The notes below the pieces were generated by a model. That model was not told where the DNA came from. It saw only the letters and a list, made by a program, of their open reading frames with translations, and did no database searches. This document shows, piece after piece, positions 1 to 54,871 of a stretch of 64,000 nucleotides of DNA; the first letter of the stretch is position 1; every line of letters starts with the position of its first letter. A program made the position numbers and the translations under genes. The DNA is taken from contig JAUCBJ010001297.1 of NCBI GenBank assembly GCA_032718475.1, forward strand, positions 60,824 through 124,823, given 5' to 3'. Source of the DNA: Nemertoderma westbladi. Taxonomy: Eukaryota; Animalia; Xenacoelomorpha.

Positions 1-1373
1 GCGTCCCGGTTGTCATCAGCAGTGGTGCGCACCACTGAGCAGGCGTTTGAAGGGCTTGAGATTATCCCAAAAGCCTGGATGGTCATCCAGTACTCCACCG
101 GTTTCTGGTTGAGGTCTCCTTCAGGCCACCACAGAAATCGTAGGCTATCTCGATCCCTATCCAGTGCCTTGACTTGTAAGAACATGCCTTCTATATCTGA
201 GGTGAAAGCGACTGAATATTGTCTTAATCTTAGGAGTATTCCCAACAAGGATTGGAGTAAATTGGGTCCGGGTAACAATTCGGAATTAAGGGATTGGCCC
301 ATGTAGAGGGCGGAGCCGTCAAACACTACTCGTACTTCATGAGGTTTACCGGGTTTGGGAATGTAATGGTGAGTTAAATAATACGTTCTCTCAGTTATAG
401 GTGTTTCTTCCGGTACTCGCTCCGCATATCCCTTGCTAATAAATTTCTTCAACTGCGTTTGATACATTTCTTTAGCTGAAGAATTTGCCGTAAGGCGTCG
501 ATGTTGTTGAGCAATTCTTTTCTCCGCCAAGGGTCTGTTGTTGATGAACTTTGGTTCTCGCTTTCTGAAAGGTAGACCGATTTCATATCTACCTTGATCT
601 TTAAGAAAACGTGTAGTTGTCTCTTGGATCTGCTTGGCTCTTTCTTCTTCTACTGATAGGGCCTTATCGTAGGAATTGGGCTCTACAGCCTCTTGAGTAA
701 AGAATCGTACGGCGTGTTCATCCCGGGTTTTGGCATTATAACGTTCAATGACGTCATTCAGTTCGTCGTTATAGTCATCTCGCTCCGATGGACGAATGAG
801 CTGACATAGGTTTACTTGGTTTTGCCAAGTCTCGTTTTCCGTAAGGAGATCAATGGTATTCTCCTCATCGCAGAGTTGGAGGATATCGTCGTTGTCTGAG
901 GAGTATGGAGTTCCCTCAGTTGGATCGTCTAACTCACTGCTCTCAACTTCCCATTCTCTTACTTGATATACCTGATCTTTCGGTAATCTTTCCATGAGAG
1001 TTCTACGGGAAGGGCCAGTAAAGTACCAACCCACTCTAGTTCTTCCCGCATAAGCTTGTAGTGGTTGCGGTTGAGCAGGCCGTTTCTCCAATGTCTCGAG
1101 CGCTTCATGCGCGTTTTGACCAATGAGTATTTGCACTCCAGGGTAATCGGTGTTGAATCTAGGTATTTCAAGCTGTTGGGTGAAATCGTCCTCATCCCAG
1201 TTATAAGGTTCCACTTGGCTGGTAGCGAAGTTCTTTATCGCCACCATTTTGACTGACCTTATACTATGTTCTCCTAGTTCATCCTGGGGGGTGGACAACG
1301 CGCCTACATAATAATCCGCTATTACGGTAGATTTCCAAACCTGCATAATTCCTGACATGTTTAGCTTAGTTCG
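1..1373 (-). pseudogene. pol: Protease C-terminus and RT of a second BEL/Pao family (element D), running off the left window edge
   Basis: Minus-strand translation gives VRVVFDGSA, SLNSELLPGPNLL, DIEGMFLQV and LRFLWW; the frame rejoins ...GQPKFRT (15163 side) across the GTTCG TSD. Confidence 0.9.
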
Positions 1374-1904
1374 TGTTAGCTTATTCAATCCCGCTAACAC
1401 CCCATAAAGTTAAGCCGATAAGCAATATTGGGGGCCACGAGATTGGGTAACCAATCACTCGTGTCACCCCAACAAAATGGGAAGGAGAAACACACAATGA
1501 GGGTCAGGGGCCAAACCCCTAACCCAGAGAGAACAGGTGGAGTGAACGGGAACACTCCAAAGGGCGCCAACAAGGGTATCAACCAATCAGAGGGGGGAAA
1601 GGCATCAATTAGGTATAGTAACAAGGCCAACCCGTGCAATATAGCCAGTTGGCAGTAATCATTTCAGTTCAGTTATCTCAGTATCATATTGGTGCTAGTT
1701 AGGTTAGTTAGTTTATCTAGGGAAGGACCGGGACTTAAATTACCGTTTCCCGCCTTCTGTGTACGACATCATATATCTATATCTATATCTTTTACCGGAA
1801 TATTATACGCGACAAACAACGTAAACCCTTTCACTCTTCACACACGGCGGGGACGCGTAAATTAACTAACGGATAAACCGGGATCCTCCCTGGATCCCGT
1901 CACA
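1374..1904 (+). repeat. 5' LTR of copy A
   Basis: Begins TGTTAGC and ends GTCACA; direct repeat of 14632-15162 with about 8 substitutions counted by eye. Confidence 0.97.
1583..1674 (+). promoter_or_regulatory. Candidate Pol II core promoter in the LTR
   Basis: CCAAT at 1583, AT-rich AATATA at ~1638, then TCAGTT initiator-like motifs at 1664 and 1669; B's LTR has a similar arrangement. The TSS is not verified. Confidence 0.4.
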
Positions 1905-1913
1905 GTAATTAAA
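1905..1913 (+). promoter_or_regulatory. Non-tRNA primer-binding site candidate (GTAATTAAA)
   Basis: Directly abuts the LTR end and has no TGG; reverse complement of TTTAATTAC in the LTR (14993-15001 perfect, 1735-1743 one mismatch). Confidence 0.7.
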
Positions 1914-1998
1914 CCCGTCGGTGGCACAGTAATTGAACTCAGAGCTGCCGACCTAGCTAGCTAAACAAGACTACCAGCCGCCAATCGAACCAAGCGAG

Positions 1999-4900
1999 AT
2001 GAGTCAGTCGAGAGAGACAACGCCGACGCGGACCCCGGCGAAGAGTTAACGATCCGCGAGGCCGGAACCAGGCGGTACAGGCTCACAACGCCGGACCCAT
2101 CGGTAACGGGTCACCCGGCAGTTCAGGATGAGGGGGGCCGCCTTGAACCCGAGGTCGAGCCGAGAGAAGGAGAGAGCGAGACAGAGGAGATGTCGGTACC
2201 GATGTCGCCGGCCAGCCACAGGCCGAGGGCGACGAGCGGCCCACCGAAACGGCGACGGTGGGGCCGACGGTATGACGCCGGACCCGGAGAGACGGAAGAG
2301 AGGTCGGCGACGAGGACGTCGGGGTTTCTGATCGACTTCGACGGGCCTACAATGCGACCCAGAAACTGCTAAAGGAGGCCAAAGAGGGGGCGAAGATAGA
2401 CGAGGTGAGACTGAGGAAACGACTAGGTGAGTCGAATAAACACTTTAATTATCTAATGCGCTTCGGGCAAAGAGAACTGGCCAAGGAGAGACCGAGAGGG
2501 GTTGCCGAGGAACTGTATGACTTATGGCGGTGTAGGAGTATGGAACCTAGCGTAGTGTACGTAGGGCCATACTTAGTCGATGCCCAGGGACTAAAATTAG
2601 TGGGTTGGGAGAGACCTGAGGAGGGCGAATCCGAGGTTAACCCCGAAGATTCGGCCTCATCGGTCGGAGGAAGTTCCGGGAGGCGGGGGAAAGTCAGTAG
2701 GTCGGGAAGGCGGAGGGAATCCGTCGCAACCGATAAGTCTGCTACATCCTCCGCGAAAGGAAGACGGGTGAGAGAGATAAATGCCACGTACCATCTCGAT
2801 TTGATAGAGCAAGGTCAAAGGGAAGTAGGTAGACGGTTAGAGGAGGGGAGAGTGCTGCTAGAGAGGGAAATGGCGTTGATCAAAGAAACCGGAGAGAGGG
2901 CCGAAAGGGCCGCGAGAAGCCTTAGGGAGTGTGAGGAAGTAGGGAGGAAGGAACAAGAAGAGCATGAGGCGGAACGTAGGGAACATGTAGCGAGGGAGAA
3001 AGATGAGCGCAAAGAGCGTGAGGCGGAACGTAAGGAACGTGTAGCGAGAGAGGAAAGCGAACGCAGGGAACGTGAGGCGAGAGAGGAAAACGAGTACAAA
3101 GAACACGAGGTGAGAGAGGAAAACGAGTGCAAAGAACACGAGGCGAGAGAGGAGAACGAACGCAGAGATCGTGAGGCGAGACGAAGGGAGGGGGCTAGAA
3201 GAGAGTTGGAATTGGCCGAGCGGGACGCACGGGAGTGTAGGGAGAGAATGGCAAGAAAGGAGTATGAGCGAGAAGAGCTAGAGAAACGTCAAGGTGAGCT
3301 TAGAGGGTACAAAGCTATACATACGTGCGAACGGGAATTGGCGCGAATAGGGGCGTCTGAGAGTGGGGCAGGCTCGAGTATTTTCGAGGAGCCAGGGGCT
3401 GTGGATACATTTATTAATACCCCACTTACAGGGACCGCACGACAGACCCAAGACTGGTGTGACCGTACGGGCGGGGGGGGGGGGGGGGGGTAATAATAAT
3501 GCTACAGTAGACGTCGTTAATATTAATAGTACCGTATTGGATAACCCTAATCCCTTTATTGCAGCAAATAATACTTTACCTAGTAGCAGTAATTTAAATT
3601 TAAATACAAATAATAATTTCAATTTGAACGTGCAAAATAATCCGAATAATAATTTAAATTTAGAAAATAGTAATAATTCAAATAATTTAAGTAATGATCC
3701 AAGCCCGAATTTACAAAATAATCCAAATGATTTTGTTTCAAACGAACAAATTAATTCCGTTTCCAATATGGGTGCTATTAACGTGAACACGTCGGGCGTG
3801 TATGGCCAGGCAGAAGGGGGCCTGGTAGGCCACGTAGTTGGTAGGGAGGGAGTGGCTGGGTTGGGTAGACCCAGAGAGGGCCTGGTAGGCCACGTAGTTG
3901 GTAGGCCGGAGCAGGCGGGGTTGAGCCAACCCAGAGAGGGCCTGGTAGGCCACGTAATTGGTAGGCAGGGAGTGGCTGGGTTGGGTAGACCCAGCGAGGG
4001 CCTGGTAGGCCACGTAGTTGGTAGGCAGGGAGTAGAGGGCCTGGTAGGCCATGCAATAGCAGAGGGACAGGCGGGGGTGAATAGACCCGACCGTGGTAGG
4101 GTTGATGTGTCGACTGGAGAGGGATATAGTAGCGAGGTGAGAGATAGCGAAGTTAGATGTGGCGAGTGGGGGGGGAGGGGGGGGGGCTACAGGGGCCCCA
4201 CAACAGAGAGTTAGCGGCAAAAAGGGGGGGGGGCAGAGAGTGTCCCACAGCCATCAGCGGATAATGCGCGGGCCGAAATAGGTAAACCGCAACACCCGGC
4301 GACGGAAAGCAATAGGGGAATTGCGAGTATCCCCAGCGGCGTGCGACCGAGCAGAGAGAGACAGGTTGACGTCGTAAGAGGGCGGACGAAGCATCGAGCC
4401 CGATCAGAAGAGGGAAGAAGAACAGTGGGGTTTAACCGGGAGGTCGACGAGAGATCTCACGAGCGGGAATACTCCACTGAAAGGAGAAGAAGAGAAGACA
4501 GTAGTAAAAGTATCGCCGCGAACTATAGAAGAGCGAGGACGGATAGCGAGCCGTCGGTAGTCGAGATGAGAACAGAGAGTCAGTGGGGTTGGACTCCGGG
4601 AGATTGCCGTCGCCCCGGAGAGATGCGACCTGGTGAGGCGCATTACGCGCCGATGGAGGGGTACGCGATGTACCGGTACGAAGACGAGAACAGTAGAGGG
4701 TGGGGGGTCGAAGAGAAACTTTCCGACGGAATATACCTACCGATCGAGAATACGGTAGCCGCGGGGAGGACTATTCGAGAAGAATAAACTTCGATCCCGA
4801 GCGACACATGCAGACTGTAGGACATACTGTAGGCCTTACTGCACATACCATAGGCCATACTGACAGAGGCAATGTAGGCGATAGGATAGCGCGGACGACG

Positions 4901-6611
4901 GGATTAAACCCAGAAGTCGCGGAATACATACCGGCGAGTAGGCCAGAAGCTGATAGGCCTATACCGGTACCAGTACACCAGTATGACTACAGCATGCAGG
5001 GACATAACATATACCCAGGGGAGGGGGGAATTATTGCGGATAGGTGTATGGGCCCCAACATATTAACATCAACCCCAGTACCAAACATACCGGTGGGGGG
5101 GGGGGGGACAGGGTGACATTCCCCCATCACAATATCAACAATATACCCCGATAGGAGCAAGAACAACGAGACCCTTGGATGAAAATAGGTCGTGCGACAT
5201 AGAAATATGGAGGGGGCCGCTACCCCCGATGACATATCCAAGTCAAAGGAAAGGTGGAAGTAGGACAGACGGACCGCACCAGACAGGAGTAACTATACAA
5301 CATCCATCAAACCCATTGGAAGCACAGGCGATGGGGATGGCCACGTTGATCGATGCGTTGAAAACGAGGATCGAGTTACCACCCGTGGAACCATTCAAAT
5401 TCGATGGGAGTAGGCCGGAAGAATATCTACAGTTTCGGTGCATGTATAGTAAGGAAATACTAACAAAAAACTTGACGCAGGCGGAGTGCCTAAAATATCT
5501 GCAAGTATACACGGGAGGCCCAGCATACGATATCGTGAGGCAATACCAAGGCATAGAGGGCGGCTTCACGACAGCATGGCGGGCACTGGATAGGGAATAC
5601 GGGCACCCGACCAAGATCATCAGGCAGACACTGAGAGGCATAACATCGGGTGGCCTACAGGATAATCCCGTTAGCATTAAGACGTTCGCTAACAAAGTCG
5701 AAAAGGCGCTAATCGTGCTGAAGACGCTAGACGCGCCATACGAGCTCAACGCGTCCAACAACATCACCACGATAGCGCAGGCACTACCGAACTGGCTGCG
5801 CAACAAGTGGAGGAAAATCGCTTTCTCCACTCGAGACAAGAAGGGTGTGGAACCGGGTTTAGAAGAAATGTCAAGCTTCTTAAACTATGAGGCTGAACTA
5901 ATAACTGACCCAGTCTATAGCGAAGATAGCCTGGGAAAGGGACCGAAGACGGATTACCATAGACCGAAGCCAGAGCACAATACATCAAACGCATTACCGA
6001 GGCTCAGGCAATCATTGCCATATGCAGCAATGCAGGGGACTGCAAGTCCACAGATAGCCGAAAGTAAGACCACACCATGGAACGAACAGGGGAACAATAA
6101 CAACACGAATAAATATAACCCCAGTACGTCCAGTAGGCCGAATCCAAACAATAAGAATAGTAGGGATTTTGGTACAAACGCAGCTGCGATACGCAATGCA
6201 CTGTATAAGGAGGGCTACGACCCAAAGAGCAAATGCCAGCTACACGCAAATGCGCTTCATCAGACCATGAACTGCAGGTACTGGCAGGCGCTACCTAGGC
6301 AAGATCAGATAGATTATGCGTTGAGCAATAAAATCTGCTCGCGATGTGTGATGAGTGGACATAGAGCTAGGGAATGCAAGGAGAAGCCGGTAAAGTTCGG
6401 TCAAAGGAGCGGCCAAACGATGGCAACGAGCACGGTAGGGGCGAAGAAGAGAGGAACGGTGTTACTTGGAGTAGTACCCGTGCGAGTGATTGGGGAAGGC
6501 AATCGATCAGTAACAACACTAATGCTGGTCGATAGTGGAGCTGCCTTCACATTAGTCGAGGAATGGGTGGAATGGAAAGAGATAGAACGAGGCCAAGCAG
6601 AATGGCGGTAA
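1999..6611 (+). pseudogene. gag: Frameshifted gag (very long N-terminal extension) and protease N-terminus of copy A
   Basis: ATG at 1999 matches B's ATG at 32282. Fragments 2405-3493, 3363-4214, 4341-4787, 4700-5116 and 5175-6611 join into one frame by comparison with B and C. BEL gag core (IELPPVEPFKFDGSRPEEYLQF...YLQVYTGGPA), knuckles CQLH..H..C and CSRC..H..C, protease LVDSGA. Confidence 0.88.
3817..4052 (+). repeat. In-frame coding tandem repeat (EGLVGHVVGR, 60-bp period, 5 copies)
   Basis: CCTGGTAGGCCA at 3821, 3881, 3941, 4001 and 4040; copy number differs in B and C. Confidence 0.9.
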
Positions 6612-9600
6612 CAACCATCTCTAGCAAAGATGAGATCCTGGAGATGAGAACCGGACGGTGCGCAATCGCAGCGGTGGCACCGGGATGCGACTATGGGGCA
6701 ACCATCGACCCCATCCAAGTGATAGAGTCAATTAATATCAATGCCAGGCGGCCAACCAACATCGAGGTCGAGCAATATAAATTCCTGGACGACATTGACT
6801 TCTCAATCCCAGATGTGGACGTTAGGAAGGTATCCATCATAGTAGGAATGGACTGCCCAACGGCCCACGAAAGAATGCAAACGGTCTTCGGCGAAGACAA
6901 GCAGTGTGACCCGGTGGCGATATTAACACCATTCGGGTGGACGCTGAGTGGCCCAATCAAGAGCAAGATACCATTTAGGATGTCGGAGACATCAGGATGC
7001 ATGTTCACGGGAACAATGCAGGAAATGGGTGATGAGGGAGCAGAGGAGCAGCTTAAAAGATTGCTCAGACAAGATTTCGAGGGACTGAAAGAGACCAGGG
7101 TCGGGACCTCGGTAGAAGACAAGCAGGCTTTACAAAGCGTGGAGGAATCGATGACATGCGATGAGGGGCGGTATACTATAGGGATGGTATGGAAACTACC
7201 GAAGATACCACTGCCCGATAATAGAGGGATGGTACTCACGAGACTCCGCAAGCTGAAACAAACACTAAAACGGAGCCCCGAGAAGAATGAGTACATCCAC
7301 AGAACGATTAAAAAGTACGTCGAGAAAGGATGGGCCGTGGAGTTACCGGTCGACGAACCGAACACAGACAGGACATATTACCTGCCACTCCACGTGGCTT
7401 TAGACCCAAAGAAAGGTAAACTGCGGATGGTAGTTGACGCATCGGCAAAGACCAACGGAAAATGCTTAAACGACTATCTGTTAGAAGGTCCAAACATATA
7501 CAACTCGGGCATAGAGGTCCTACTTAGATTTAGGAATGGGAAACACACCTTCACGTGTGACATAGAAGGCATGTTCAACCAAGTCCGTGTAACAGAGGAA
7601 GATAGCGATAGTCAACGCTTCTTATGGTATAACGGCGAAAAAGAACCGCCTATAATACCGGCATATAAGATGGTAGTACAAAACATGGGGGCCAAGTCGT
7701 CCTCATTTACGACGACTATGGCAGTGAGAGACACGGTAAAGGGGAAGGAAGATAGATATAGCAGTAGGGCCGTCGATATGATCCGACGCGGCTTCTACGT
7801 AGACGACGGTATGGAGTCTGGAAATACGGTTGAGGAGATACTGGAAACAGGGCGCGAGGTTCGCGACATCCTGAAAGGATCCGGCTTCAACCTGACCAAA
7901 TTCCAATCCAGTTCAGAAGAATTTATCAAGGAAATAGAAGACAAGAAACCAGGATCGACCATGGACAACCCTACAACAGCCAAAGGACAGGACATGGCGA
8001 TTAAGAGAACGGAATCCCAGCAGAAGGCATTGGGAATCGTGTGGGATAGGAAAACAGACGAACTGAAGTATCAGCTGAGCCAGGTGGGCGCAGACACCCA
8101 TACGAAGAGGGGTTATGTATCGTATATAGCAAGGATATACGATCCCCTAGGCCTAGCATCCCCACTACTAGTCACGGGGAAACAGATACTCAAGAGAGTA
8201 TATAAATTGAAGGATGAGTGGGACGTAGAGGTACCAGAGGAAATCAAGAAACAGTGGAGTAAGTGGACAGGAGACTTGGAGAAGATGGGAACATACAACA
8301 TGCCACGAGTGTATTTCCCGGATGGGAACATGACGAATCTGGACCTACACATGTTCTCCGATGCGTCATTAGAGGCGTACGGAGCGGCACTCTATTTAGT
8401 ACAACGAGAGGGGGCTCATAAGCCCAGACTAGCCTTTAGCAAAGCAAAGTCGACGCCGCCAGATTCAGCATCAGTTCCCAAATTAGAATTGACAGCTGCG
8501 AGACTAGGAGTAAGAGCCACAGCCTACCTAGTGGATACCATTCCCAACATAGTGGAGACACACTACTGGACGGACTCCATGGTAGTGCTTGGTTGGCTAC
8601 ATAACGAAAGGACGAGATACCCAATATTCGTCGCAAATAGAGTGGACGAAATAAGGGCGACCACAGAACTGGAAAGGTGGCACTACTGCCCAACGGACGA
8701 GAACCCAGCGGACTTGTTGTCGAGGGGCGTGGTACGCCACACTTTCTTGAAGAAGGAAGTATTGTGGCAACATGGGCCAGAATTTCTGAGCGATAAGGAG
8801 GCCTGGCCGCCGATGAGAAAGGTGGATCCGGGCTCAGAAGTAGTGTCAGAGGGAGAAGAAGGAGATTCAGAGGGAGAAGAGATATACTCCCAGATGGTGA
8901 GGGAGATTAGGGACGTGCAACCAAAGCAAGAACTATGCGATAACCCGACGGATAAACTCCTCAGCTACAGTTCTAGTTGGTATAATACCAAGAAATTAGT
9001 GGCGTACTGGAGAGCCTTCGGGAATTTCCTCGCGGGAGTCGGCAAAGACAAGAAGATCAGGACATCCATAGATCTGGAAGGAGCGGCCAAGGCGGTCATC
9101 CGCTATGAACAACGGAAGAACTATGGCGACGAGGTGGAAAGCGTCGGTAACCAACAGCACCTCCGACGGGACAGCGAGCTGATCACGCTGTCGCCACAAC
9201 TTAATGACGATGGGATTCTAGTAATGAATTCTAGGGTGGGATACAACAACAGCATAATCGTACCATCGAAACCCATCATCATTCCAACAGGATCGCCAAT
9301 AGTTCACCAGATTATCTGGGACTCCCATAAGTCGATATTGCACGGGGGCACCAACAGAACTCTCACGGAGATAAGGAGGACCTTTTGGGTCATACAGTTG
9401 AAGAAGAAGGTAAAAGCGGTAGTGGGGCAGTGCCAGACCTGCCGACGAGCGAAGAAGGAGCGAGCCATACAAGAGATGGCGCCACTACCAGCAAGTAGAG
9501 TAAGACAGCACGACCCGCCATTTACGCATTGTGGTGTGGACATGTTCGGGCCGATAAAGATCAAGGTGATGCGGCACACGGAGAAACGCTACGGTATCAT

Positions 9601-10435
9601 CTTCGTATGTAACAACACGCGGGCGGTAGGGATAGAACTCGCCCAAGATGCAACCGCATCAGCATTCATTAATGCCTTAGAAAGGTTTAGAGACCGCAAA
9701 GGTGGGACGATCGCAGTGATATACAGCGACAACGGCACCAACTTTGTGGGCGGAGAGAATGAGATGGCAGAGGCCTTGGACATCTTGGAAGGGGAGGAAG
9801 TCAGGGCGGCCATGAGACGACGACAAGTAAAGTGGGAGAGAAGGACGCCGTATGCACCACATACACTAGGATGCGTCGAGAAACTGGTGGGCAGTTCAAA
9901 GCGTCTAATGACAAAGCTAATGAACACCCACATGGTCACTGAGGACGTCTTACGGACAGTGCTTGCGAAGTGCGAGGGGATCATTAATAGCAGACTGCTA
10001 TACCCGGAGAATGATGACCCTGAATCACTAGACGTGCTGACGCCTAGCCATTTTCTAATGGAAAGGCCAGCGACCATCGATATGCGGGGTGTAGATCCAG
10101 ACGACATACACTCCCGCCAGAGTTGGAAAGTCGCTAAAGCAATAAGTGCCGAGTATTGGAGGAGGTGGGTTGAAGAATACCTGCCCACGCTCCATAAAAG
10201 AAGCAAGTGGAGGAAGCCGAATAGGGAGTTAAGAGAGGGAGATCTCGTAATCGTTACGGATGATACTATCATCAACAACCAATGGCGGTTGGCGAGAGTT
10301 GTAGGCACTTACTCCGATGAGGACGAAAGAGTCCGATCGGTAGAAGTGCGGATAGGTGGTAAGATAGGTGCGAAGGACAGAAAAACCTACAGGAGAGCTG
10401 TAGGGAAATGCTGTCTGTTAGAAGGGGCACCTTAG
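6563..10435 (+). CDS. pol: BEL/Pao Pol (protease C-terminus, RT, RNase H, integrase), open for 1290 aa
   Basis: RT: YYLPLH, KLRMVVDAS, LNDYLLEGPN, DIEGMF, FYVDD, DPLG. RNase H: MFSDAS..AYGA, PKLEL, YWTDS, NPAD. Integrase: H..H..CQTC, GVDMFGP, SDNGTNF, CVEK, WRLARV. Separated from gag here by a local lesion at ~6570 that B lacks. Confidence 0.97.
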   Translation: MGGMERDRTRPSRMAVTTISSKDEILEMRTGRCAIAAVAPGCDYGATIDPIQVIESININARRPTNIEVEQYKFLDDIDFSIPDVDVRKVSIIVGMDCPTAHERMQTVFGEDKQCDPVAILTPFGWTLSGPIKSKIPFRMSETSGCMFTGTMQEMGDEGAEEQLKRLLRQDFEGLKETRVGTSVEDKQALQSVEESMTCDEGRYTIGMVWKLPKIPLPDNRGMVLTRLRKLKQTLKRSPEKNEYIHRTIKKYVEKGWAVELPVDEPNTDRTYYLPLHVALDPKKGKLRMVVDASAKTNGKCLNDYLLEGPNIYNSGIEVLLRFRNGKHTFTCDIEGMFNQVRVTEEDSDSQRFLWYNGEKEPPIIPAYKMVVQNMGAKSSSFTTTMAVRDTVKGKEDRYSSRAVDMIRRGFYVDDGMESGNTVEEILETGREVRDILKGSGFNLTKFQSSSEEFIKEIEDKKPGSTMDNPTTAKGQDMAIKRTESQQKALGIVWDRKTDELKYQLSQVGADTHTKRGYVSYIARIYDPLGLASPLLVTGKQILKRVYKLKDEWDVEVPEEIKKQWSKWTGDLEKMGTYNMPRVYFPDGNMTNLDLHMFSDASLEAYGAALYLVQREGAHKPRLAFSKAKSTPPDSASVPKLELTAARLGVRATAYLVDTIPNIVETHYWTDSMVVLGWLHNERTRYPIFVANRVDEIRATTELERWHYCPTDENPADLLSRGVVRHTFLKKEVLWQHGPEFLSDKEAWPPMRKVDPGSEVVSEGEEGDSEGEEIYSQMVREIRDVQPKQELCDNPTDKLLSYSSSWYNTKKLVAYWRAFGNFLAGVGKDKKIRTSIDLEGAAKAVIRYEQRKNYGDEVESVGNQQHLRRDSELITLSPQLNDDGILVMNSRVGYNNSIIVPSKPIIIPTGSPIVHQIIWDSHKSILHGGTNRTLTEIRRTFWVIQLKKKVKAVVGQCQTCRRAKKERAIQEMAPLPASRVRQHDPPFTHCGVDMFGPIKIKVMRHTEKRYGIIFVCNNTRAVGIELAQDATASAFINALERFRDRKGGTIAVIYSDNGTNFVGGENEMAEALDILEGEEVRAAMRRRQVKWERRTPYAPHTLGCVEKLVGSSKRLMTKLMNTHMVTEDVLRTVLAKCEGIINSRLLYPENDDPESLDVLTPSHFLMERPATIDMRGVDPDDIHSRQSWKVAKAISAEYWRRWVEEYLPTLHKRSKWRKPNRELREGDLVIVTDDTIINNQWRLARVVGTYSDEDERVRSVEVRIGGKIGAKDRKTYRRAVGKCCLLEGAP

Positions 10436-10549
10436 TGGAGTTGAAGAAGAGTTTAGTCATCCAAGCTTTGGACTGAGGGGGGTGGGATTGAGGGCGAGAC
10501 GCCCTTCCCACACAAAAAAAATAGAAAATAAAAAATAAAATAATAGTAC

Positions 10550-10915
10550 ATAGTAGGTACGCAGTTAGTAGGCAGAAGTTAGCCAGTAAGAGGTACGTAG
10601 TACCATCAGTTAGTTAGTTAGAGAGTTAGAGGGTACGTAGTAGCGTTAGTTAGAGAGTTAGAGGGTACGTAGTACCGTCAGTTAATTAGTTAGAGAGTTA
10701 GATGGTACGTAGTACCGTTAGTTAGAGAGTTAGAGGGTACGTAGTACCGTTAGTTAGAGAGTTAGAGGGTACGTAGTACCGTTAGTTAAAGAGTTAGAGG
10801 GTACGTAGTACCGTTAGTTAGAGAGTTAGAGGGTACGTAGTACCGTTAGTTAGAGAGAGAGAGTAAGAGTTAGAGGGTACGTAGTACCGTTAGTTAGAGA
10901 GAGAGTAAGAGGTAG
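10550..10915 (+). repeat. Tandem array (~32-bp unit, core GAGGGTACGTAGTACC with GTTA spacers) between pol and the extra ORF
   Basis: GTAGTACC recurs at 10741, 10773 etc.; homologous arrays are present in B and C. Confidence 0.93.
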
Positions 10916-11379: not shown

Positions 11380-13925
11380 ATGACGAGCAAATTGATCAGA
11401 AAGAGAAAGGCGGAGTCAGGAGGAAAGGAGATACTGGTGGATTTCACCGAGAGGCATCCGGAAGAGAAGACGAGAGGATACTACGAGAGGTTGGAAAGGG
11501 GTCACGCGGCACGAGCGCTGCAGGATCACTTCTGGGAGATGCACGAACAGCGGCTGGTCGGGACCTACGGGACGCCGTCGCTGGACAATGCGATCTTCCA
11601 ACACTTCCACTACGTGGTAAAAGGGGACGAGGCGAAGTTCGGGATTCCAAAGTACCCGAGGGAATCACCAAGGAAGGATTGGAAGAGATTCATAGAGTCC
11701 GTCAACAGGGGAGGATATATGATCCTAGACGATGAGGGAACTGTGGAAGACGAGGAGGGTTCGAGACGAGGATCGGCGGGGTCGGCCAGGACCATACTCC
11801 TACATTTGGCCGCGCCAAATGGGGACATCTTCTTATTCGATCTAGGAACGTATGGGAAGAAGGACGGGGCGAAATTAAACCGGTTGCCGAAAGCGGTACA
11901 AGTCTTGGTAAGAGAGAAGTCGACGACGAAAGTGGGATCGGCGATTCGCGAGGACACGGAGAGAATCATCGGTCCGGACGCCACCAACCTCCTGGATATG
12001 CAGAAGGTCTTCATGGCTATGACGGCACCGGATGGGTTGGGGGTAGTCGGAAACACAGGTCAATACGGGGCGGTGGCAATGGGCCAACTATTGGGGCTCG
12101 TATGCCACAAACCGATGGACTGGGGGAAGTTCAGGGAAGAATACGGAGCAGAACTAGCGAACTCGCTAAAGTGGGGAGCGAGACCGGGAAAGCAAGAGGT
12201 ATATCAATTCCGCAGAGGAGCGATAAAGGTATATCAGAAGCGATATATCCTGCAGGAAGATTGGATGATGATAAGTTTGCTTAACTTATTTATGACCGTG
12301 GTTATCGAGAGGGAACCAGCGGCATTTCTGTTATCGGGATCACCCCTAAGCTACAGGACAGCCTTTAAAATGGCCTTCGACGGTCTGGTAGACCACCCGG
12401 GGCTGAAGGGCGAGTCGGTGTACTATAACAGCCGACATCTGGTAGACGGGGAGACAGATACGCCGTATCAGAGATGGGAGCAGCTAGAGACGGATAGACG
12501 AGAAGCAAAGCGACTGGAAGAAGTCGCTAGACGGCAGAGGATAGAAGCAGAGGAGAGGGAAGAGGAGGCCAGGACGCAGAGTTACGGCTTCGAGGAACAG
12601 GCAGGCTTAGACGAACTTCATTGGACTTCATCAGGGAGTTCGGGGGAGTCTCTAGGGCGAGAATTGGGATGGACGGTGGGATCGCCGAAACAGTCGACGT
12701 CGGGGTTGCAAGAGATGCCCATACCAGCGGGCGCCGAAGGCGACCAACCACCAAGGAAGTTAAGGGAGCTAGAGGGATGGAGAGCTACGGGCGAGAGCCA
12801 AGGCGGGAAGGGACATAGTGGATCCATCGGGATACCGGGGTTGGAGCCACTGCCAGAGGAGGAGGATGACGACGACGAGTTCGGAGGGGTGCCGCCCATC
12901 GAGAGGATTGGCCACTCGGACACGGACTGGGTTGGCGGGAGGGTGGTGACGGCCAGTGGGGCGAGGGCCTTCTGGAACAGATCCGGCAAGCGGTCCTGGG
13001 TGCACGAGGAGCCAGCGATGGATTTCGCGGGGAGCACTATCAGGTTGGGCGAGCAACCGGGGACGGCACCACGGATAGTATTCGGGGGACAATGCCCGAG
13101 AGGGGCGAAGAGATCGACGTAGACAGGGACACCAACGTGGAGAAGTTCGCCTACCAGCGACTCCACAGACCGCGGAGATCGCTCGGGACGAAAGACGACG
13201 TGGGGCGGGAGACATTGGTACTCGGTTGCGACTACTGTGGGAGACAGACCCACCAGGAAAGGAGCTGCTTGTACCGGTTCCAAAAGGGAACCTTTTGTCT
13301 CTACTGCCGAGAGTCGAGCCACAGGATGGGGGCGTGTCCCCGGTTGCATAACCGATGTCTGAAGTGCAACTTTCGGGGACACTACGGACGCCAGTGCGAC
13401 TGGATGGACGACGAAGAGAAGTTCAGAAGATTCGAGGAGTGGGCCGACGTCGGGGCCATGACGCGCCAGCGCATGAAGGCCCAGGAGTTCAAGTGGGGTT
13501 TCTTCCTTATCAATCAGGAGGCTCACATGGAAATCATAAAGCGGAGGTTACCGTTTACCTATCAAGAGGTAGCAACGGCGGCGTCGTATGCCGGAGTGAT
13601 GAATACACAAAGATATTTGGACAGGTGGACGCCACAGAACTGAGGGGAGTTTAGGGATTTCTTGGCGGAGCACGTGCCGCGAGCAATGAAAATGATCCTA
13701 TGGGACGCCACCAGAGGGAGACAACAGGGCCACTCTGAGGGGCCACCGGCGAAGCGATATCGGGCACTAATAACACCAGCGCCCAAGGAGCCAACAACCG
13801 GGATCTGTAGGGAGGTGGCGGCGAAAGTCCGAAAGCAGAAAACGGATCCCAGAGGAGCGGCAGTAACCAAGAAACGACCCAGGGAAGAGGACGCCAGAGG
13901 GAACTATCCCCAGAGGAACAGATAG
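11380..13925 (+). pseudogene. Extra ORF: DEDDy-like 3'-5' exonuclease domain plus 3x CCHC zinc knuckles (~850 aa reconstructed), copy A
   Basis: ILDDEG (ExoI-like, 11722-11739); LLHLA..IFLFDL..LP..V..LV....KVG..I.ED (ExoII-like, ~11929-11955); NLLDMQ; QKRYILQED (ExoIII-like, 12235-12261); three C-x2-C-x4-H-x4-C at 13227-13397. A 1-nt deletion at ~13088 and a TGA at 13641 are absent from the other copies. Confidence 0.8.
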
Positions 13926-14593: not shown

Positions 14594-14631
14594 ATGCTAT
14601 CTTCTCACCGGGAAGATAGCATGGGGGGGAG
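14594..14631 (+). promoter_or_regulatory. 11-bp hairpin followed by the polypurine tract
   Basis: ATGCTATCTTC-N7-GAAGATAGCAT then GGGGGGGAG directly before the 3' LTR; same arrangement in B and C. Confidence 0.85.
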
Positions 14632-15162
14632 TGTTAGCTTATTCAATCCTGCTAACACCCCATAAAGTTAAGCCGATAAGCAATATTGGGGGCCACGAGA
14701 TTGGGTAACCAATCACTCGTGTCACCCCAACAAAATGGGAAGGAGAAACACACAATGAGGGTCAGGGGCCAAACCCCTAACCCAGAGAGAACAGGTGGAG
14801 TGAACGGGAACACTCCAAAGGGTGCCAACAAGGGTATCAACCAATCAGAGGGGGGAAAGGCATCGATTAGGTAGAGTAACAAGGCCAACCCGTGCAATAT
14901 AGCCAGTTGGCAGTAATCATTTCAGTTCAGTTATCTCAGTATCATATTGGTGCTAGTTAGGTTAGTTAGTTTAGCTAGGGAAGGACCGGGACTTTAATTA
15001 CCGTTTCCCGCCTTCTGTGTACGACATCATATATCTATATCTATATCTTTTACCTGAATATTATACGCGACAAACAACGTAAACCCTTTCACTCTTCACA
15101 CACGGCGGGGACGCGTAAATTAACAAACGGATAAACCGGGATCCTCCCTGGATCCCGTCACA
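14632..15162 (+). repeat. 3' LTR of copy A
   Basis: 531-bp direct repeat of 1374-1904, followed by TSD GTTCG. Confidence 0.97.
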
Positions 15163-18100
15163 GTTCGGAACTTGGGTTGTCCAGCAAAGATGTCTTCGGC
15201 TAGCTCTTTGTCGATGAATGTTCCTGTGCTACCGGAGTCAAGGAGGGCATTCACTATATAACTCCTTTTAGGTAAGTGGACCCTTAACTGCACTACTGGA
15301 AATTCTCGGATTCCTACATTGGAAGTTGGCGCTTTCCAAGATGGTTGTCGATCAGAAGTAGTTAGGGTGAGGTCGCTGTCGGTGTCTTTTTCGTAAGTGA
15401 GTGCTCGATACACTGCGGTATTTATCATGTAACAGGATTCGTTTTCGTCGGAGAATTCGTCCGTATAGAATCCTTCCATCTCAGAACTTTGGTCAGTGTC
15501 ATTCACATCACTGAACTGGACATGTAATTCGGAATCACTTACCTGACTCTGGCTGTTTCGCTCGAATTCAGTGTGCAACAAGATATGATGTTTCGCACCG
15601 CACTTTGCACACCTTGTGTCGGAGTAACAGGTTCGCCGTTGGTGTCCTTGTCTGAGGCAATTATAACACAACCGCTTATCCCACATGACTTCCCATCTCT
15701 CCGTTAATGATTTCTTTAGGAATTCATCACACATATTCAAACGGTGAGTCCCGTCACATAGCACACATTTCGGTTTGATGTTACTTACCTTATTTTGAAC
15801 AACATTGTGCACACTCGTTCTTTCTTTGGGCTTTCTCATCTGAATTCTCTTAGGAGACGGAGGAGGAGTTTTTCTTACCTGTTCTCTCCTGTCATTGGTT
15901 CGAGACTTGAATTTACTTACCTGTTCTTTAGGTGTTTTATTGACATAATAAGATCTTTCAGTGTCTTTCCCGCTGTCCTCTCCTTGAGAAGTCTGGCTTT
16001 CGCCGTCGTCGGTATAACACACTGGTGTTACTTTTCTCCTAGAAACGGGTTTCTCACTTACCTTGTTTTCCGGTGTCTTCTCTCTGGACTGCTTTAGGAG
16101 TTGTAATTTCACTTCTCCGTCTAAGAATGACATGAGATCAGCCATGGTAGGGTCTCGTCGTTGTTATTCCATCATATATAACACTTTTTTATCCCAGCGT
16201 GTACCTACTCCACCCTTCGGTAAAGTAGAAGCCACGGCTCCAATAACCATAGAACTCTGATATTCATGAGACTTACCTAACCAATCTAATTGTCTACAGA
16301 TCTCTTGAATCTCATCGGAAAACTCTATTATCTTGCTGCTAATGAACTCTCGGGGCGCTACTAATTTTGCATACAAATATTTAGCTATGTTATTCCTATT
16401 ACCATACCTGATGTTTATTGTATCCCAAACTTGTGTTAATCCGTCTGGATGTCCAATAAACTTTAACGCCATTAACTTGGGAGATCCTTGCAAGCACTCG
16501 ATGAGGAATCTAAGTTTCTCTCCGTTAGATAGCACAGAGTTCTGTATGTTATCTTTGTAATATTCATTAAAAGGTAACCATTTCATCTCATCTCCATTGA
16601 ACTTGACTATCTCTCCCACCTTTACCGCTTGACGGGCTTCGGTTCTAGCCATTTGACGTTAAAACTTTCTTGGGCCATCGTGTTATTTAATGTCGAGTTA
16701 TCGGTATATAAATTTCTAGGATTATGATCAAGTCTATAGGGAATATCATTGTCAACAGGTTTATAATTACCCTTAATAGGGTTCACTATAGGAGTTTCTA
16801 CTTCACTAGCAGTATAGATGCGTGTAGGCTCCACACCTTGCGCATGAGATACTTCAGACCTAACAGGTTGACACATTGTTACCGAGGGTGGTGGTATACC
16901 CTTTTGTGTATTTACTAATTTATCGCGTTCTAATGCGATACTTTGCTGCACTTCTTGCAACTCTAACCTACTTTCCCTTACTGTGCCCTTGAACTGCTTA
17001 ACAGTCTCCTGCATCTGCCCGAGCAGGAGATCCATCCCCCGCCGTCTCTCATCCACCCACTCGACCGCCGAAGCGGGAGCCGCCAACGTTGTAGCGGGCG
17101 GACGAGGGACAACGGGCGACAAATCATTAATTTTTCGCTCGGAGTCAGGGACATGAACATTTTCAGGGGAGGTTCTGTGGGGCACAGGTAGCTTAGTGCT
17201 GTGCAGAGGGAATTTAGAGGTGGGTTCTGGGAGCACAGGTGTCTCTATCACCGAAGGGGTGATTTCAAGAACAGGCCTAATTATTTCAGGCTCATCTACT
17301 ATAGTAGGGAGTCTTTCTATTTTAATTATTTGGTCTGTGGGTTCTGTACTACCTAAGTCTGTGTTAGTTAGTTGCCTTCTAACAGCTGGGGGCAAATCAG
17401 GCAATTTGTGACGGTGAGATGTTCTTCTACGCCTACTTAGACGAGATCTATTTCCTCCGCCTTCAGGATTGGTGGTATCGCCTTCCTCAGATGATGTATA
17501 TCCTTGTCTTTTGGGAGTAGATCGATTCATCATCTGCATATTACTAGCTGTTAACTGTTTATTGAAGTTGTCTTGCCTCTCTTGTAGATTTTCCAACTCT
17601 AGTTGGGTTGTCTCTTCAGATGCCCTCCGTTCTGCTTCTGCCACTGCTATTTTTCTTTCCGCTTCGGCCGCCTTTCTTTCCGCTTCTGCCGCTGCTGCTT
17701 TTCTTTCCGCTTCGGCCGCCTTTCTTTCCGCTTCTACTGCTGCAGCTACCGCTTTTGCCTCTGCCGCTGCCGCTTTTGCCTCTGCCGCTGCCTCTGCGGC
17801 TTTTCTATCCACTTCTGCCGCTTTTCTTTCCGCTTCTGCCACTGCCACTGCCGCTGCTGCTGTCTTTCTATCTTCTATACGTTTTTTCTTTACTTGTTCT
17901 TCTTGAACCTTAGCGATGCGGATGCTTTCATCAAATTTAGCTTGGTTCGCAGCTATCCTATCCGCATCGATTGCGTCCAACACAAGCTTGGCTCCTTCAC
18001 TATTAGGGCTAAGTCCATCCAGCCGTCTCCTCAATTCTTCGTCCCCTACAAAGCGTTGATAGTCTGACAGATAGATGTCAATGGCATCCCTCTTATGCGG

Positions 18101-31526: not shown

Positions 31527-31589
31527 ATCTATAGGTCGTATATATATATATATATATCGTATATAGGTGTATATATATCTATAGGTGTA

Positions 31590-32196: not shown

Positions 32197-32281
32197 TCAG
32201 CGGCCGCCCTAGCTAAACACAGTAACTAAAACCAACCGCTGCCCTAGCTAGCCAAACCAACAGCCACCAATCACCAGCGAG

Positions 32282-46658: not shown

Positions 46659-49136
46659 ATGGCGAGTAAGTTGATCAGAAAGAGAAAGGCGGAGTCAGGA
46701 GGAAAGGAGATACTGGTGGATTTCACCGAGAGGCATCCGGAAGAGAAGACGAGAGGATACTACGAGAGGTTGGAAAGGGGTCACGCGGCACGAGCGCTGC
46801 AGGATCACTTCCGGGAGGCGCACGAACAGCGGCTGGTCGGGACCTACGGGACCCCGTCGCTGGACAACGCGATCTTCCAACACTTCCACTACGTGGTAAA
46901 AGGGGACGAGGCGAAGTTCGGGATTCCGAAATACCCGAGGGAATCACCGAGGAAGGACTGGAAGAGATTCATAGAGTCCGTCAACAGAGGAGGATATATG
47001 ATCCTAGATGACGAGGGAACCGTGGAAGACGAGGCGGGTTCGAGACGAGGAACGGCAGGGTTGGCCAGGACCATACTCCTACATTTGGCCGCGCCAAATG
47101 GGGACATCTTCTTATTCGACCTAGGGACGTATGGGAAGAAGGACGGACCGAAATTAGACCGATTACCGAAAGCGGTACAAGTCTTAGTAAGAGAGAAGTC
47201 GACGACGAAAGTGGGATCGGCGATTCGCGAGGACGCGGAGAGGATCATCGGTCCGGACGCCACCAACCTCCTGGATATGCAGAAAGTCTTTATGGCTATG
47301 ACGGCACCGGATGGATTGGGGGTAGTCGAAAACACAGGCCAATGCGGGGCGGTGGCGATGGGCCAATTATTGGGGCTCGTATGCCACAAACCGATGGACT
47401 GGGGGAAGTTTAGGGAAGAATACGGAGCAGAACTAGCGAACTCGCTAAAGTGGGGAGCGAGACCGGGAAAGCAGGAGGTATATCAGTTCCACAGGGGAGC
47501 GATAAAGGTATATCAGAAGCGATATATCCTGCAGGAGGACTGGATGATGATAAGTTTGCTTAACTTATTCATGACCGTGATTATCGAGAGGGAACCAGGG
47601 GCATTTCTGTTATCGGGATCACCCCTAAGCTACAGGAGAGCCTTTAAAGTGGCCTTTGACGGTCTGGTAGACCACCCGGGGCTGAAGGGCGAGTCGGTGT
47701 ACTACAACAGCCGACATCTGGTAGACGGGGAGACAGATACACCGTATCAGAGATGGGAGCAGCTAGAGACGGATAGACGAGAAGCAAAGCGACTGGAAGA
47801 AGTCGCTAGACGGGAGAGGATAGAAGCAGAGGAGAGGGAAGAGGAGGCCAGGACACAGAGTTACGGCTTCGAGGAACAGGCGGGCCTAGACGAACTTCAT
47901 TGGACTTCGTCAGGGAGTTCGGGGGAGTCTCTAGGGCGAGAATTGGGATGGACGGTGGGATCGCCGAAACAGTCGACGTCGGGGTTGCAAACGATGCCCA
48001 TACCAGCGGGCGCCGAGGGCGACCAACCGCCAAGGAAGTTAAGGGATACCGGGATTGGAGACACTACCGGAAGATGAGGACGACGACGACGAGTTCGGAG
48101 AGATGCCGCCCATCGAGAGGATAGGCCACTCGGACACGGACTGGGTTGGCGGAAGGGTGGTGACGGCCAGTGGGGCGAGGGCCTTCTGGAACAGATCCGG
48201 CAAGCGGACCTGGGTGCACGAGGAGCCGGCGATGGATTTCGCGGGGAGCACCATCAGGTTGGGCGAGCAACCAGGGACGGCACCACGGATAGTATTCGGG
48301 GAGACGATGCCCGAGAGGGGCGGAGAGATCGACGTAGACAGGGAGACCAACGTAGAGAAGTTCGCCTACCAGCGACTCCACAGACCGCGGAGATCGCTTG
48401 GGACGAAAGACGATGTGGGACGGGAGACATTGGTACTCGGCTGCGATTACTGTGGGAGACAAACCCATCGGGAAAGCAGCTGCCTATACCGGTTCCAACA
48501 GGGAACCTTTTGTCTCTACTGCAGAGAACCAAGCCACAGGATGGGGGCATGTCCACGGTTGCATAACCGATGTCCAAAGTGCCACTTTCGGGGACACTAC
48601 GGACGCGAGTGCGACTGGATGAACGACGAGGAGAAGTTCACGAGATTCGAGGAGTGGGCCGACGTCGGGGCCATGACGCGCCAGCGCATGAATGCCCAGG
48701 AGTTCAAGTGGGGTTTCTTCCTTATCAATCAGGAGACTCACATGGAAATCATAAAGCGGAGGCTACCGTTTACCTACCAAGAGGTAGCAACGGCGGCGTC
48801 GTACGCTGGAGTGATGAACACGCAAAGGTATCTGGACAGGTGGACGCCAGAGAACCGAAGGGAGTTTAGGGATTTCTTGGTGGAGCACGTACCAAAGGCA
48901 ATGAAAATGATCCTATGGGACGCCACTAGAGGGAGACAACCGGGCCATTCTGAGGGGCCGGGCGATATCGGGCACTAATAACACCAGCGCCCAAGGAGCC
49001 AACGACCGGGATCAGCAAGGAAGTGGCGGCGAAGGTCCGAAAGCAGAAAGCGGATGATGCCAGAGGAACGGTGATAACCAAGAAACGACCCAGGGAAGAG
49101 GACGCCAGGGGGAACTACCCCCGGAGGAACAGATAG
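46659..49136 (+). pseudogene. Extra exonuclease/zinc-knuckle ORF of copy B
   Basis: ORFs 46659-48077 and 48055-48978 are near-identical to A, including ILDDEG, KVGSAIRED, YILQED and 3 CCHC; deletions at ~48043 and ~48960. Confidence 0.8.
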
Positions 49137-52306: not shown

Positions 52307-54871
52307 TTAGTTCGTTTCACCAGCCTTTGGGAACCACCTCAAGTCATTCCCTTTGCCGTCCTCCTCCCTGGGTTGTTTCCTGGTCACTACCGCTCCTCTG
52401 GGATCCGCTTTCTGTCTTCGGACTCTCGCCGCCACCTCCTTACTGATCCCGGTCGTTGGCTCCTTGGGTGCCGGTGTTATCAGCTCCCGATATCGCTTCG
52501 CGGGTGGCCCCTCCGAGTGGCCCTGTTGTCTCCCCCTGGTGGCATCCCATAGGATCATTTTCATTGCCCGTGGCACATGCTCCGCCAAGAAATCTCTGAA
52601 CTCTCCTTGGTTCTGTGGCATCCACCTGTCCAAATACCTCTGCGTATTTATCACCCCGGCATACGACGTTGCCATTGATATCTCCTGGTAGGTAAACGGA
52701 AGTCTCCGTTTAATAATCTCCAGGTGGGCCTCCTGGTTGATATTAAAGAAGCCCCACCGGAACTCCTGGGCCTTCATACACTGCCGCGTCATGGCGCCGA
52801 CATCGGCCCACTCCTCGAAGATCTTAAATTTCTCTTCATCGTCCATCCAGTCGCACTGGCGTCCGTAGTGCCACCGGAAGTTGCACTTAGAACACCGGTT
52901 GTGCAACCGTGGACATGCCCCCATCCTCTGACTCAACTCGCGGCAGTAGAGGCAGCTTGTCCCCCTTTGGAATCGGTACAAGCAGCTCCTTTCCTGGTGA
53001 GTTTGCCTCCCGCAGTAATCGCAACCGAGTACCAATGCCTCCCGCCCCACGTCGTCTTTCGTCCCAAGCAATCTCCTCGGTCTATGGAGTCGCTGGTAAG
53101 GGAACTTCTGGACGTTAGCGTCCCTGTCCATGTTTATCTCCTCGTCTCGCCTGGGCATCGCCTCTCCGAATACTACCCGTGGTGCCGTTCCTGGTTGCTC
53201 GCCCAACCTGATGGCGCTCCCCGCAAAATCCATCGCCGGCTCCTCATGCACCCAGGCCCGCTTACCGGGTCTGTCCCAGAAGACCCTCGCCCCGCTGGCC
53301 GTCACCACCCTCCCACCAACCCAGTCCGTGTCTGAGTGGCTGATTCTCCCGATGGGTGGCATCTCTCTGAACTCCTCGTCATCCTCGTCCTCCTCTGGGA
53401 GTGGCTCCAAACCCAGTATCCCGGTGGATCCACTGTGTCCCTTCCCACCTTGGCTCTCGCCCATGACTCTCCATCCTTCCAGGTCCCCTGGCCTTCTCCC
53501 CGCGAAATCGCCCTCGGCGCCCGCTGGTATGGGTATCGTCTGCAATCCCGATGTCGACTGTTTCGGTGATCCCACCGTCTACCCTAATTCTCGCCCTAGA
53601 GACTTGCCCGAACTCCCTGATGATGTCCAACGAAGTTCGTCTAAGGCCGCCTGTTCCTCGAACCCGTAGCTTTCCCTTCTTTCTTCCTCCTCTCTTTCTT
53701 CTGCCTCCCTCCTTTCTCGCCTAGCGATTTCTTCCAATTGCTTCGCCTCTCGTCTATCCGCCTCTAGCTGCTCCCATCTCTGATATGGCGTACCCACCTC
53801 CCCGTCTACTAGATGTGGGCAGTTATAGTATACCGACTCGCCCTTCAGCCCTGGGTGGTCTACCAGACCCTCGAAAGCCGTCTTGAAGGCTCTTCTGTAG
53901 TTCAGGGGTGATCCCGATAGCAGGAATGCCGTTGGTTCTCTCTCAATGACGACGGTCATGAATATGTTTAGCAAACCCATCATTATCCAGTCCTCCTGCA
54001 GGATATATCGCTTCTGATATACCTTTATCGCTCCTCTCCGGAATTGATACACCTATTGTTTCCCTGGCCTTGCTCCCCACTTCAGCAAGTTTGCTAGCTC
54101 CACTCCGTACTCCTCTCTGAACTTACCCCAGTCCATCGGTTTGTGACACACGAGCCCCATTAGCTGGCCCATCGCCACCGCTCCACAATGGCCTGCGTTC
54201 TCCACTAGTCCCAACCCGTCTGGTGCTGTCATAGCCATGTAGACCATCTGCATGTCCAGGAGGTTGGGGGTGTCCGGACCGATGATTCTCTCCGCATCTT
54301 CGCGGATCGCCGATCCCACCTTTGTCGTCGACTTCTCTCTTACTAGGGTTTGCACCGCCTTTGGCAACCGGTTCAACTTCGGCCCGTTCTTCTTCCCATA
54401 CGTTCCCAGGTCGAATAGGAAAATGTCCCCATTTGGGGCGGCCAAATGTAGGAGTATGGTTCTGGCCGACCCTGCCGACCGTCTTCTTGAACCTTCCTCA
54501 TCTTCTACGGTCCCCTCATCGTCTAGGACCATGTATCCTCCCCTGCTGACGGACTTTACGAACCTCTTCCAATCCTTTCTTGGTGGCTCCTTTGCGTACT
54601 TCGGAATCCCGAAATTCGCCTCGTCTCCCTTCACCACGTAGTGGAAATGCTCGAAGATTGCGTTGTCTAGCGACGGTGTCCCGTAGGTCCCGACCAGTCG
54701 CCGTTTGTGCATCTCCCTGAAATGGTCCTGCAGCGCTCGCGCTTTGTGACCCCTCTCTAACCGCTCGTAGTATCCCCTCGTCTTTTCTTCCGGATGCCTC
54801 TCGGTGAAATCCACCAGTATCTCCTTTCCTCCTAACTCCACCTTTCTCTTTCTGACCAGTTTCTCCACCAT
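52307..54871 (-). pseudogene. Extra exonuclease/zinc-knuckle ORF of copy C (one frame, ~854 codons, two nonsense mutations)
   Basis: ORFs 54053-54886, 53579-54052 and 52307-53575 are in the same frame; the TAG stops correspond to E and W codons in A/B. Confidence 0.82.

Follow-up and report, generated by a model that had tools for sequence, protein, structure and literature searches.

A third open reading frame joining a predicted DEDDy-like exonuclease domain to three CCHC zinc knuckles in BEL/Pao retrotransposons of Nemertoderma westbladi

Extra open reading frames (ORFs) for DEDDy-type exonucleases are known as the ORF3s of bdelloid rotifer retroelements, where they were described from the long terminal repeat (LTR) elements Juno and Vesta and from Athena/Terminon elements (PMC5408684), with further background in PMC5718144, PMC6431247 and PMC6338049. 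A cellular counterpart is the RNase D of Trypanosoma brucei (TbRND), in which U-rich RNA is bound by four CCHC fingers at the C-terminus; they increase RNA binding and greatly enhance trimming by the DEDDy domain (PMC7797062). For the BEL/Pao superfamily, the Belpaoviridae profile of the international virus taxonomy committee (ICTV) gives the genes gag, pol and env only (PMC8742986); the word exonuclease is absent from the main text of a BEL/Pao survey (PMC3118150), and the available parts of PMC9094657 and PMC11662393 add no BEL/Pao exonuclease ORF. Here we describe a third ORF (ORF3) carried by three copies (A, B and C) of a BEL/Pao family in a 64,000-nt stretch of Nemertoderma westbladi DNA (assembly GCA_032718475.1, contig JAUCBJ010001297.1, positions 60,824 to 124,823 of the forward strand; hereafter the window), which is a nest of retroelements. 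Its product is a predicted DEDDy-like 3'-5' exonuclease with three CCHC knuckles, which we tentatively suggest may act on the element's own RNA particle by trimming 3' ends, a reading that we hold at somewhat less than even strength.

ORF3 comprises about 850 codons and lies between pol and the 3' LTR in 3/3 copies. Its copies and parts are:

11380..13925, plus strand: ORF3 of copy A, from ATG to stop, disrupted near 13086 by an indel of 1 nt and at 13641 by a TGA
46659..49136, plus strand: ORF3 of copy B, from ATG to stop, having lost 47 nt near 48023, 18 nt near 48042 and 7 nt near 48960
52307..54871, minus strand: ORF3 of copy C, one frame of 854 codons with in-frame TAG at 54055 and 53581
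11650..12315, plus strand: predicted DEDDy-like exonuclease domain (residues 91–312), uninterrupted in copy A
11722..11739, plus strand: ExoI motif, with Asp117 and Glu119 as invariant columns in 77/77 alignment rows
11929..11955, plus strand: ExoII motif, with Asp192; Lys, Gly and Asp invariant in the 77-row alignment; core of the hidden Markov model (HMM) and hhalign match
12235..12264, plus strand: ExoIII motif, with Tyr289 kept, Glu293 at the catalytic Asp position and Asp294 adjacent
12469..12604, plus strand: Glu/Arg-rich helix, a probable coiled coil or single alpha helix judging from sequence and composition
13227..13397, plus strand: three CCHC zinc knuckles, starting at 13227, 13296 and 13356
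13398..13690, plus strand: conserved segment after the knuckles, with a ratio of non-synonymous to synonymous rates (dN/dS) of 0.06–0.13, no known family and no homologue found

An initial annotation made from the DNA letters alone had placed ORF3 at these coordinates, and an ATG and a stop codon do delimit it in all three copies; as it also stated, the lesions fall at different positions, copy C is a single frame with two stops, and the motifs it named are all present and in the order given. The protein runs from a basic N-terminus through the nuclease-like domain, the Glu/Arg helix, a linker, the knuckles and the conserved segment to a basic tail. The linker, described in that annotation as acidic, is in fact Gly/Pro/Ser-rich (30%) with a single acidic patch.

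The domain at residues 91–312 is very probably DEDDy-like, because features from the ESM Atlas, a controlled profile match and the register of the motifs agree. In the Atlas, copy A alone had 25 of 30 matches in PF01612 clusters at 0.92, with agreement of the family matches in 10/10 and three unnamed clusters at the top of the ranking. A reference HMM was derived from 75 bacterial WRN/EXD2-like proteins (those of sufficient length among 120 loci) collected by a sequence motif, the Q, Y and W of ExoIII being fixed in this set by the search pattern used; with this model, the three ORF3 copies ranked first among 350 window segments (E 0.009–0.026). When RNase D and Pol I exonuclease of E. coli were added to the same 75 proteins, hhalign scored 40.2 (probability 81%), or 31.1 without the added pair. 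The controls stayed lower, with a maximum of 21.9 over 200 column shuffles and 14.8 on reversal; of 93 window tiles in total, the unrelated ones reached no more than 25.6. In extended alignments ExoI, ExoII and ExoIII are all in register, and the D, E, D and Y are retained at 15–25% overall identity to the bacterial family members used. ExoIII reads Q-x2-Y-x3-E-D-W in ORF3 versus Q-x2-Y-x3-D-A-W in the family. Both the family resemblance and the altered ExoIII that the initial annotation had proposed are therefore retained here, and since the ExoIII Asp position holds Glu we file the domain as DEDDy-like rather than as a canonical DEDDy member; a DEDDy subfamily is not assignable. A motif-order pattern matched by 0/100,000 shuffles was given no weight, as it was written after the sequence had been seen and fits 38 of the 75 family members.

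Structure prediction placed a helix and three successive strands where expected in the unguided model despite its low pLDDT, and the D-x-E of ExoI sits on a strand in both this model and a second one guided by a bacterial DEDDy alignment. The guided model matched TbRND, EXD2, Egalitarian, RICE1, Nibbler, WRN and RNase D, as well as giant-virus 3'-5' exonucleases, with a best Z of 11.8 (root-mean-square deviation (rmsd) 3.7, 158 residues aligned) and Z-scores of 10–12 tied across DEDDy families. WRN and Pol I exonucleases were among those tied at the top, and the longest alignments were to Egalitarian (183 residues), TbRND (182) and EXD1 (177). These matches indicate compatibility with the DEDDy fold only.

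ORF3 is under purifying selection on element-borne copies, as the initial annotation had suggested from the five synonymous changes out of five between A (11461–11505) and C, a count that we recovered. Pairwise NG86 dN/dS was 0.13–0.17 for the whole of ORF3 (bootstrap 0.10–0.22) and 0.08–0.12 for the nuclease region, compared with 0.45–0.72 (median 0.59) when neutral evolution was simulated under an equal transition bias. For the integrase portion of pol, dN/dS was 0.05. As NG86 is biased low by transitions, we also used the less biased ratio of second-position to four-fold differences, which was 0.25–0.26 for the whole ORF3 and 0.12–0.13 for the nuclease. Between C and A, 4.1% of second positions in the nuclease differ versus 34.5% of four-fold sites, and in the knuckles the figures are 6% versus 30–38% (38% for C vs A). 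The gene was kept in 3/3 copies, and in lineages that differ at about 30% of their four-fold sites.

Public read contigs matched the 600-nt nuclease core 835 to 1,406 times per run, and 29 of the 40 listed variants (50 more being unlisted) were synonymous versus 34% expected (P 3e-6). The codons for Glu293 and Asp294 showed only synonymous variation among the listed variants, and deletion joints inside ORF3 were minor. A 3.8-kb stretch was represented by 5,694 and 9,637 read contigs in two runs (contig counts, not copy number), and in a run labelled as a second organism, possibly of RNA, the region was represented by 11 pieces at low depth, which are uninformative about expression. Directly before the ExoII Asp (11950–11952) the window copies have Glu, whereas some of the read contigs, the piece from the second organism among them, have Asp.

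The knuckles of ORF3 follow C-x2-C-x4-H-x4-C exactly in 8 of 9 instances over the three copies, the second knuckle of C having lost its His as noted in the initial annotation; against Pfam zf-CCHC_4 they gave E 0.02, under the cut-off. The family's own nucleocapsid is reduced, an observation absent from that annotation:

6234..6377, plus strand: Gag nucleocapsid of element A, with one C-x2-H-x4-H-x4-C knuckle and one CCHC knuckle, followed by the protease

The nucleocapsid of B (36485) is the same as that of A, and in C (60171) the second knuckle additionally lacks one Cys. BEL Gag typically has three knuckles and ends C...C...H...H, a usual trait rather than an ICTV criterion. The third knuckle is missing from 3/3 copies of this family and is present, by pattern, in 88 of 92 relatives longer than 1,700 aa (28 shorter relatives were left out, and two of the four misses look like pattern artefacts) as well as in the other BEL family of the window. 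As this comes from one family, the loss of a Gag knuckle alongside three knuckles in ORF3 is a lead and not a correlation. That the knuckles of ORF3 arose by copying those of the family's Gag was rejected, since by eye the two sets differ in spacing and sequence.

An env identity for ORF3 was likewise rejected. A hydropathy scan showed no signal peptide (best N-terminal 19-residue value -0.07) and no C-terminal transmembrane anchor or other transmembrane helix (the maximum, 1.36, being the ExoIII helix), so that the initial view of ORF3 as not env-like holds in these respects; the furin-type strings that it reported as lacking do occur, in the form R-x-K/R-R at residues 385, 597 and 816, and are meaningless without a signal peptide. 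A splice acceptor 5' of the ORF3 ATG was rejected too, and with it any claim of an expression signal: copy C does not keep the AG, and conservation of the upstream block (0.81) is no higher than that of the spacer (0.80).

The elements that carry ORF3 have the following features:

1373-15164, plus strand: element A, whole, 13,792 bp, LTR-bounded
1373..1906, plus strand: 5' LTR of element A, 534 bp, TG...CA
2276..10435, plus strand: gag-pol of element A, in several broken frames, in the order protease, reverse transcriptase (RT), RNase H, integrase
10475..10490, plus strand: G-rich run resembling a polypurine tract, just past the pol stop, identical in A, B and C
10541..10910, plus strand: tandem array of ~32-bp units between pol and ORF3, also present in B at 45501-46174
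14631..15164, plus strand: 3' LTR of element A, with a polypurine tract directly before it
31657-50380, plus strand: element B, with LTRs identical at 530/531 positions and a gypsy element inserted at ~37773-42763
51056-51608, minus strand: 3' LTR of element C, the 5' end of which lies beyond the window

The LTRs of element A are identical at 526 of 534 positions and a 5-bp target duplication (GTTCG) stands at both ends, while its gag-pol matched the Pfam families DUF1759 (1e-10), Peptidase_A17 (1.9e-40) and DUF5641 (1.1e-23) together with RVT_1 (weakly), Integrase_H2C2 and rve; the RT motif is YVDD. The 120 pol relatives listed are all BEL/Pao polyproteins carrying PF05380 (identity 31–35%), those with names being from marine invertebrates and fish. 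Copies B and C match A along its length, and on Pfam matches and best hits we assign the family to BEL/Pao (Belpaoviridae), as the initial annotation had done, none of the candidates scored being closely related to it. The LTR length (within the range of 0.2–1.2 kb), the polypurine tract, the target duplication and the order of the pol domains in element A are all traits of Belpaoviridae.

After the pol stop at 10435 come the polypurine-like tract and the tandem array, followed by an AT-rich spacer, by ORF3 and by a further 700 nt before the 3' LTR. The polypurine-like run at 10475–10490 possibly represents an ancestral 3' end predating the addition of ORF3, or an internal priming site. The ~700-nt noncoding stretch before the 3' LTR (13926–14630) is probably a constrained RNA or promoter element, because A and C are 87% identical there and differ at 30% of four-fold sites in ORF3. 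The N-terminal region of gag-pol before DUF1759 (2276–5000) is very long, contains 33-, 54- and 60-nt repeats and has no Pfam match. A ~140-bp remnant of a fourth ORF3 copy lies on the opposite strand at 31589–31656 and 50381–50452, and element B sits inside it.

Other members of BEL/Pao replicate with no gene of this kind, which makes ORF3 an accessory gene. Its start lies ~950 nt past the pol stop, for which reason we propose that it would be translated from a sub-genomic RNA. By analogy with TbRND, the knuckles would hold single-stranded RNA and feed the active site while the nuclease trims 3' ends, and they may compensate for the knuckle lost from Gag; two-metal catalysis would persist with Glu at the ExoIII position. 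In our judgement the domain has probably retained exonuclease activity. The benefit would be local, in that 3' tails or host small RNAs would be stripped off the element's transcript and the RNA protected for reverse transcription. It is the reduced Gag nucleocapsid that shifts the reading from a general effector against PIWI-interacting RNAs (piRNAs) to a protein of the element's own ribonucleoprotein. The bolder proposal, that this is the first animal LTR retrotransposon with an active counter-defence nuclease, a DEDE variant tethered by its knuckles to the element's RNA that strips host-added 3' tails or bound piRNAs while the knuckles partly replace the nucleocapsid, is one that we regard as rather unlikely.

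Several points weigh against trimming on the element's own RNA by a DEDDy-like enzyme. ExoIII is Y-x3-E (Tyr289-x3-Glu293) and not Y-x3-D, and TbRND without this Asp had trace activity only, Glu not being among the replacements tried there (PMC7797062). The knuckles stand ~290 residues from the nuclease, versus 28 in TbRND. The Atlas match shares 164 features, below the 170 typical of true family members, and ORF3 had no sequence match in Pfam, PHROG, NCBIfam or PDB. The unguided fold (pLDDT 34.7) had no Foldseek match, and the fold that did match DEDDy structures (pLDDT 72.8) owed this in part to its guiding alignment, was therefore partly circular and had no decoy control. The Gag-knuckle link comes from one family, and 2–4 of the 92 relatives also lack the third knuckle, their 3' regions not being covered. 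Finally, all three window copies are broken, in gag-pol or ORF3, which places selection in the past or on copies elsewhere.

Among other explanations, the main idea of the initial annotation, a diffusible nuclease by which host piRNAs or small interfering RNAs would be shortened or degraded in trans, has some appeal, as trimmers of small RNAs and proteins of the piRNA pathway are among the fold relatives (Nibbler/Mut-7, EXD1, SDN1, TbRND), the family is abundant in the read contigs, the N-terminus is basic (RKRK at residue 7) and overexpression of TbRND lowers guide RNAs (PMC7797062). Transposon anti-silencing systems have so far been narrow, however, since broad blocks hurt the host (PMC6719617, in the part available), and a public good fits poorly with constraint near that of pol in a family of many copies: a shared suppressor would invite free riders, yet ORF3 was kept in all three copies, which argues for local action. 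We consider action in trans improbable, if clearly worth entertaining. Somewhat less probable still is a catalytically weakened RNA-binding adaptor which, like Egalitarian, EXD1 or Maelstrom, would chaperone or transport the element's RNA and supplement Gag. The Glu in place of the ExoIII Asp, the suitability of the charged helix and knuckles, the reduced nucleocapsid and the three longest guided-model alignments (Egalitarian, TbRND, EXD1) all fit such a role, and EXD1 and Maelstrom are termed inactive DEDD derivatives (PMC5408684). The Z-scores, however, are tied across DEDDy families, and at <25% identity ORF3 still has three of the carboxylates, the Tyr and an acid in the fourth position, which is seldom seen in pseudo-enzymes.

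A role in proofreading, or in trimming cDNA ends, during reverse transcription of so long an element (13.8 kb), comparable to that of nidoviral ExoN, appears very unlikely. The element does exceed the 4.2–10 kb stated for Belpaoviridae (PMC8742986), the DEDDy domains of Dada elements have been proposed to process DNA 3' ends (PMC3706591), and WRN and Pol I exonucleases are among the top-tied folds; but the gene is separate from and not fused to RT, the knuckles indicate RNA, and the longer LTR elements Burro and Ogre have been described with no such domain noted in the available part of PMC6431247. Least credible of all is that the domain is unrelated to DEDDy enzymes or that ORF3 is a passively carried host gene. 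Standard sequence searches were indeed all blank, with no relatives of the ORF3 parts among 1.84 billion protein representatives, none of the N-terminal part among 5.8 billion clusters (nor of the knuckle region within longer proteins, in a weaker search) and no matches in viral, metagenome and prokaryote contigs or in phages, and the only confident fold was guided; against this stand the agreement of Atlas features, controlled profile match and motif register, and selection acting on the element-borne copies.

The window also holds a second BEL/Pao family (1–1372, 15165–21900 and 25170–31530) in two copies that face apart and are ~80% alike, with element A inserted in its protease-RT region. 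The N-terminus of its Gag (an 816-aa ORF at 16622–19072) matches no Pfam family and contains a long Ala/Glu/Arg/Lys helix. The gypsy-type element in pol of copy B (37773–42763) has identical LTRs of ~150 bp and a 51-bp tandem array, and a GC content much below that of the BEL family. Fragments of non-LTR endonuclease genes were found at 21929–22873 (Exo_endo_phos_2) and 23986–24585.

No BEL/Pao exonuclease ORF was found in the literature searched, a search whose scope left out Repbase, Dfam, GyDB and the Malik 2000, Bowen 1999 and Frame 2001 papers. TbRND is a cellular DEDDy enzyme with a C-terminal CCHC array (PMC7797062), and the fusion of exonuclease and knuckles is hence, within what was searched, new to transposons but not to biology, so that the novelty claimed by the initial annotation survives for BEL/Pao and not for the architecture as such. 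Animal transposon-encoded proteins against RNA silencing are an open question, the convincing cases being from plants (PMC6719617, in the part available); the rotifer ORF3s raised the idea without evidence of selection or activity, and the present ORF looks like an independent capture in a different LTR superfamily, with strong selection, a predicted RNA-binding module and an uninterrupted nuclease domain amenable to assay. In it a textbook active site occurs in nature with Glu for Asp, and part of the work of the nucleocapsid has possibly passed to an accessory gene. Nematode Cer elements reportedly also have accessory ORFs, possibly including an exonuclease, which tempers the claim to novelty.

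Other known systems resemble ORF3 in part. TbRND (PDB 7c42/7c4c), the nearest in architecture, shares the order of DEDDy domain and CCHC array and was the top Foldseek match of the guided model (E 9.6e-5, Z 11.1, rmsd 3.8, 182 residues aligned), but it is a cellular mitochondrial enzyme with four knuckles, a 28-residue linker and a canonical DEDD site (PMC7797062), and phmmer found no match to ORF3 in PDB at E 10; the shared architecture is probably convergent. The PF01612 nucleases (WRN-exo, EXD2, Mut-7/Nibbler, Egalitarian/EXD1) have the same motif order and register, are Atlas neighbours and match the guided fold at Z 10–12, whereas ORF3 is 15–25% identical to the bacterial members used, falls under the Pfam cut-off and has long inserts and the ExoIII Glu. 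The env-bearing belpaoviruses Cer13, Atlas and Tas likewise have a third gene, located after pol and ahead of the 3' LTR (PMC9094657, PMC8742986), but ORF3 lacks a signal peptide and membrane anchor and has a soluble design suited to binding nucleic acid. Dada elements also carry their own DEDDy exonuclease, although they are DNA transposons with the domain inside the transposase and four canonical catalytic residues (PMC3706591).

Another close parallel is with the rotifer ORF3s: they too are extra ORFs that lie 3' of pol where env would be, with an RNase D-like DEDDy domain in which one acidic residue is altered (PMC5408684). Compared by description only, the present ORF differs in its BEL/Pao host, its length of ~850 aa, its charged helix (the rotifer ORFs being described in the available text as without coiled-coil and transmembrane domains) and its three CCHC knuckles. 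The active site is DEDE, changed at the fourth position, versus DEED in rotifers, the third acid being Asp here, and purifying selection is clear, whereas the rotifer ORFs are reported to show no significant departure from neutrality (PMC5408684). ORF3 is thus distinct from the known DEDDy ORF3s in its superfamily, its knuckle fusion, its active-site change and its evidence of selection.

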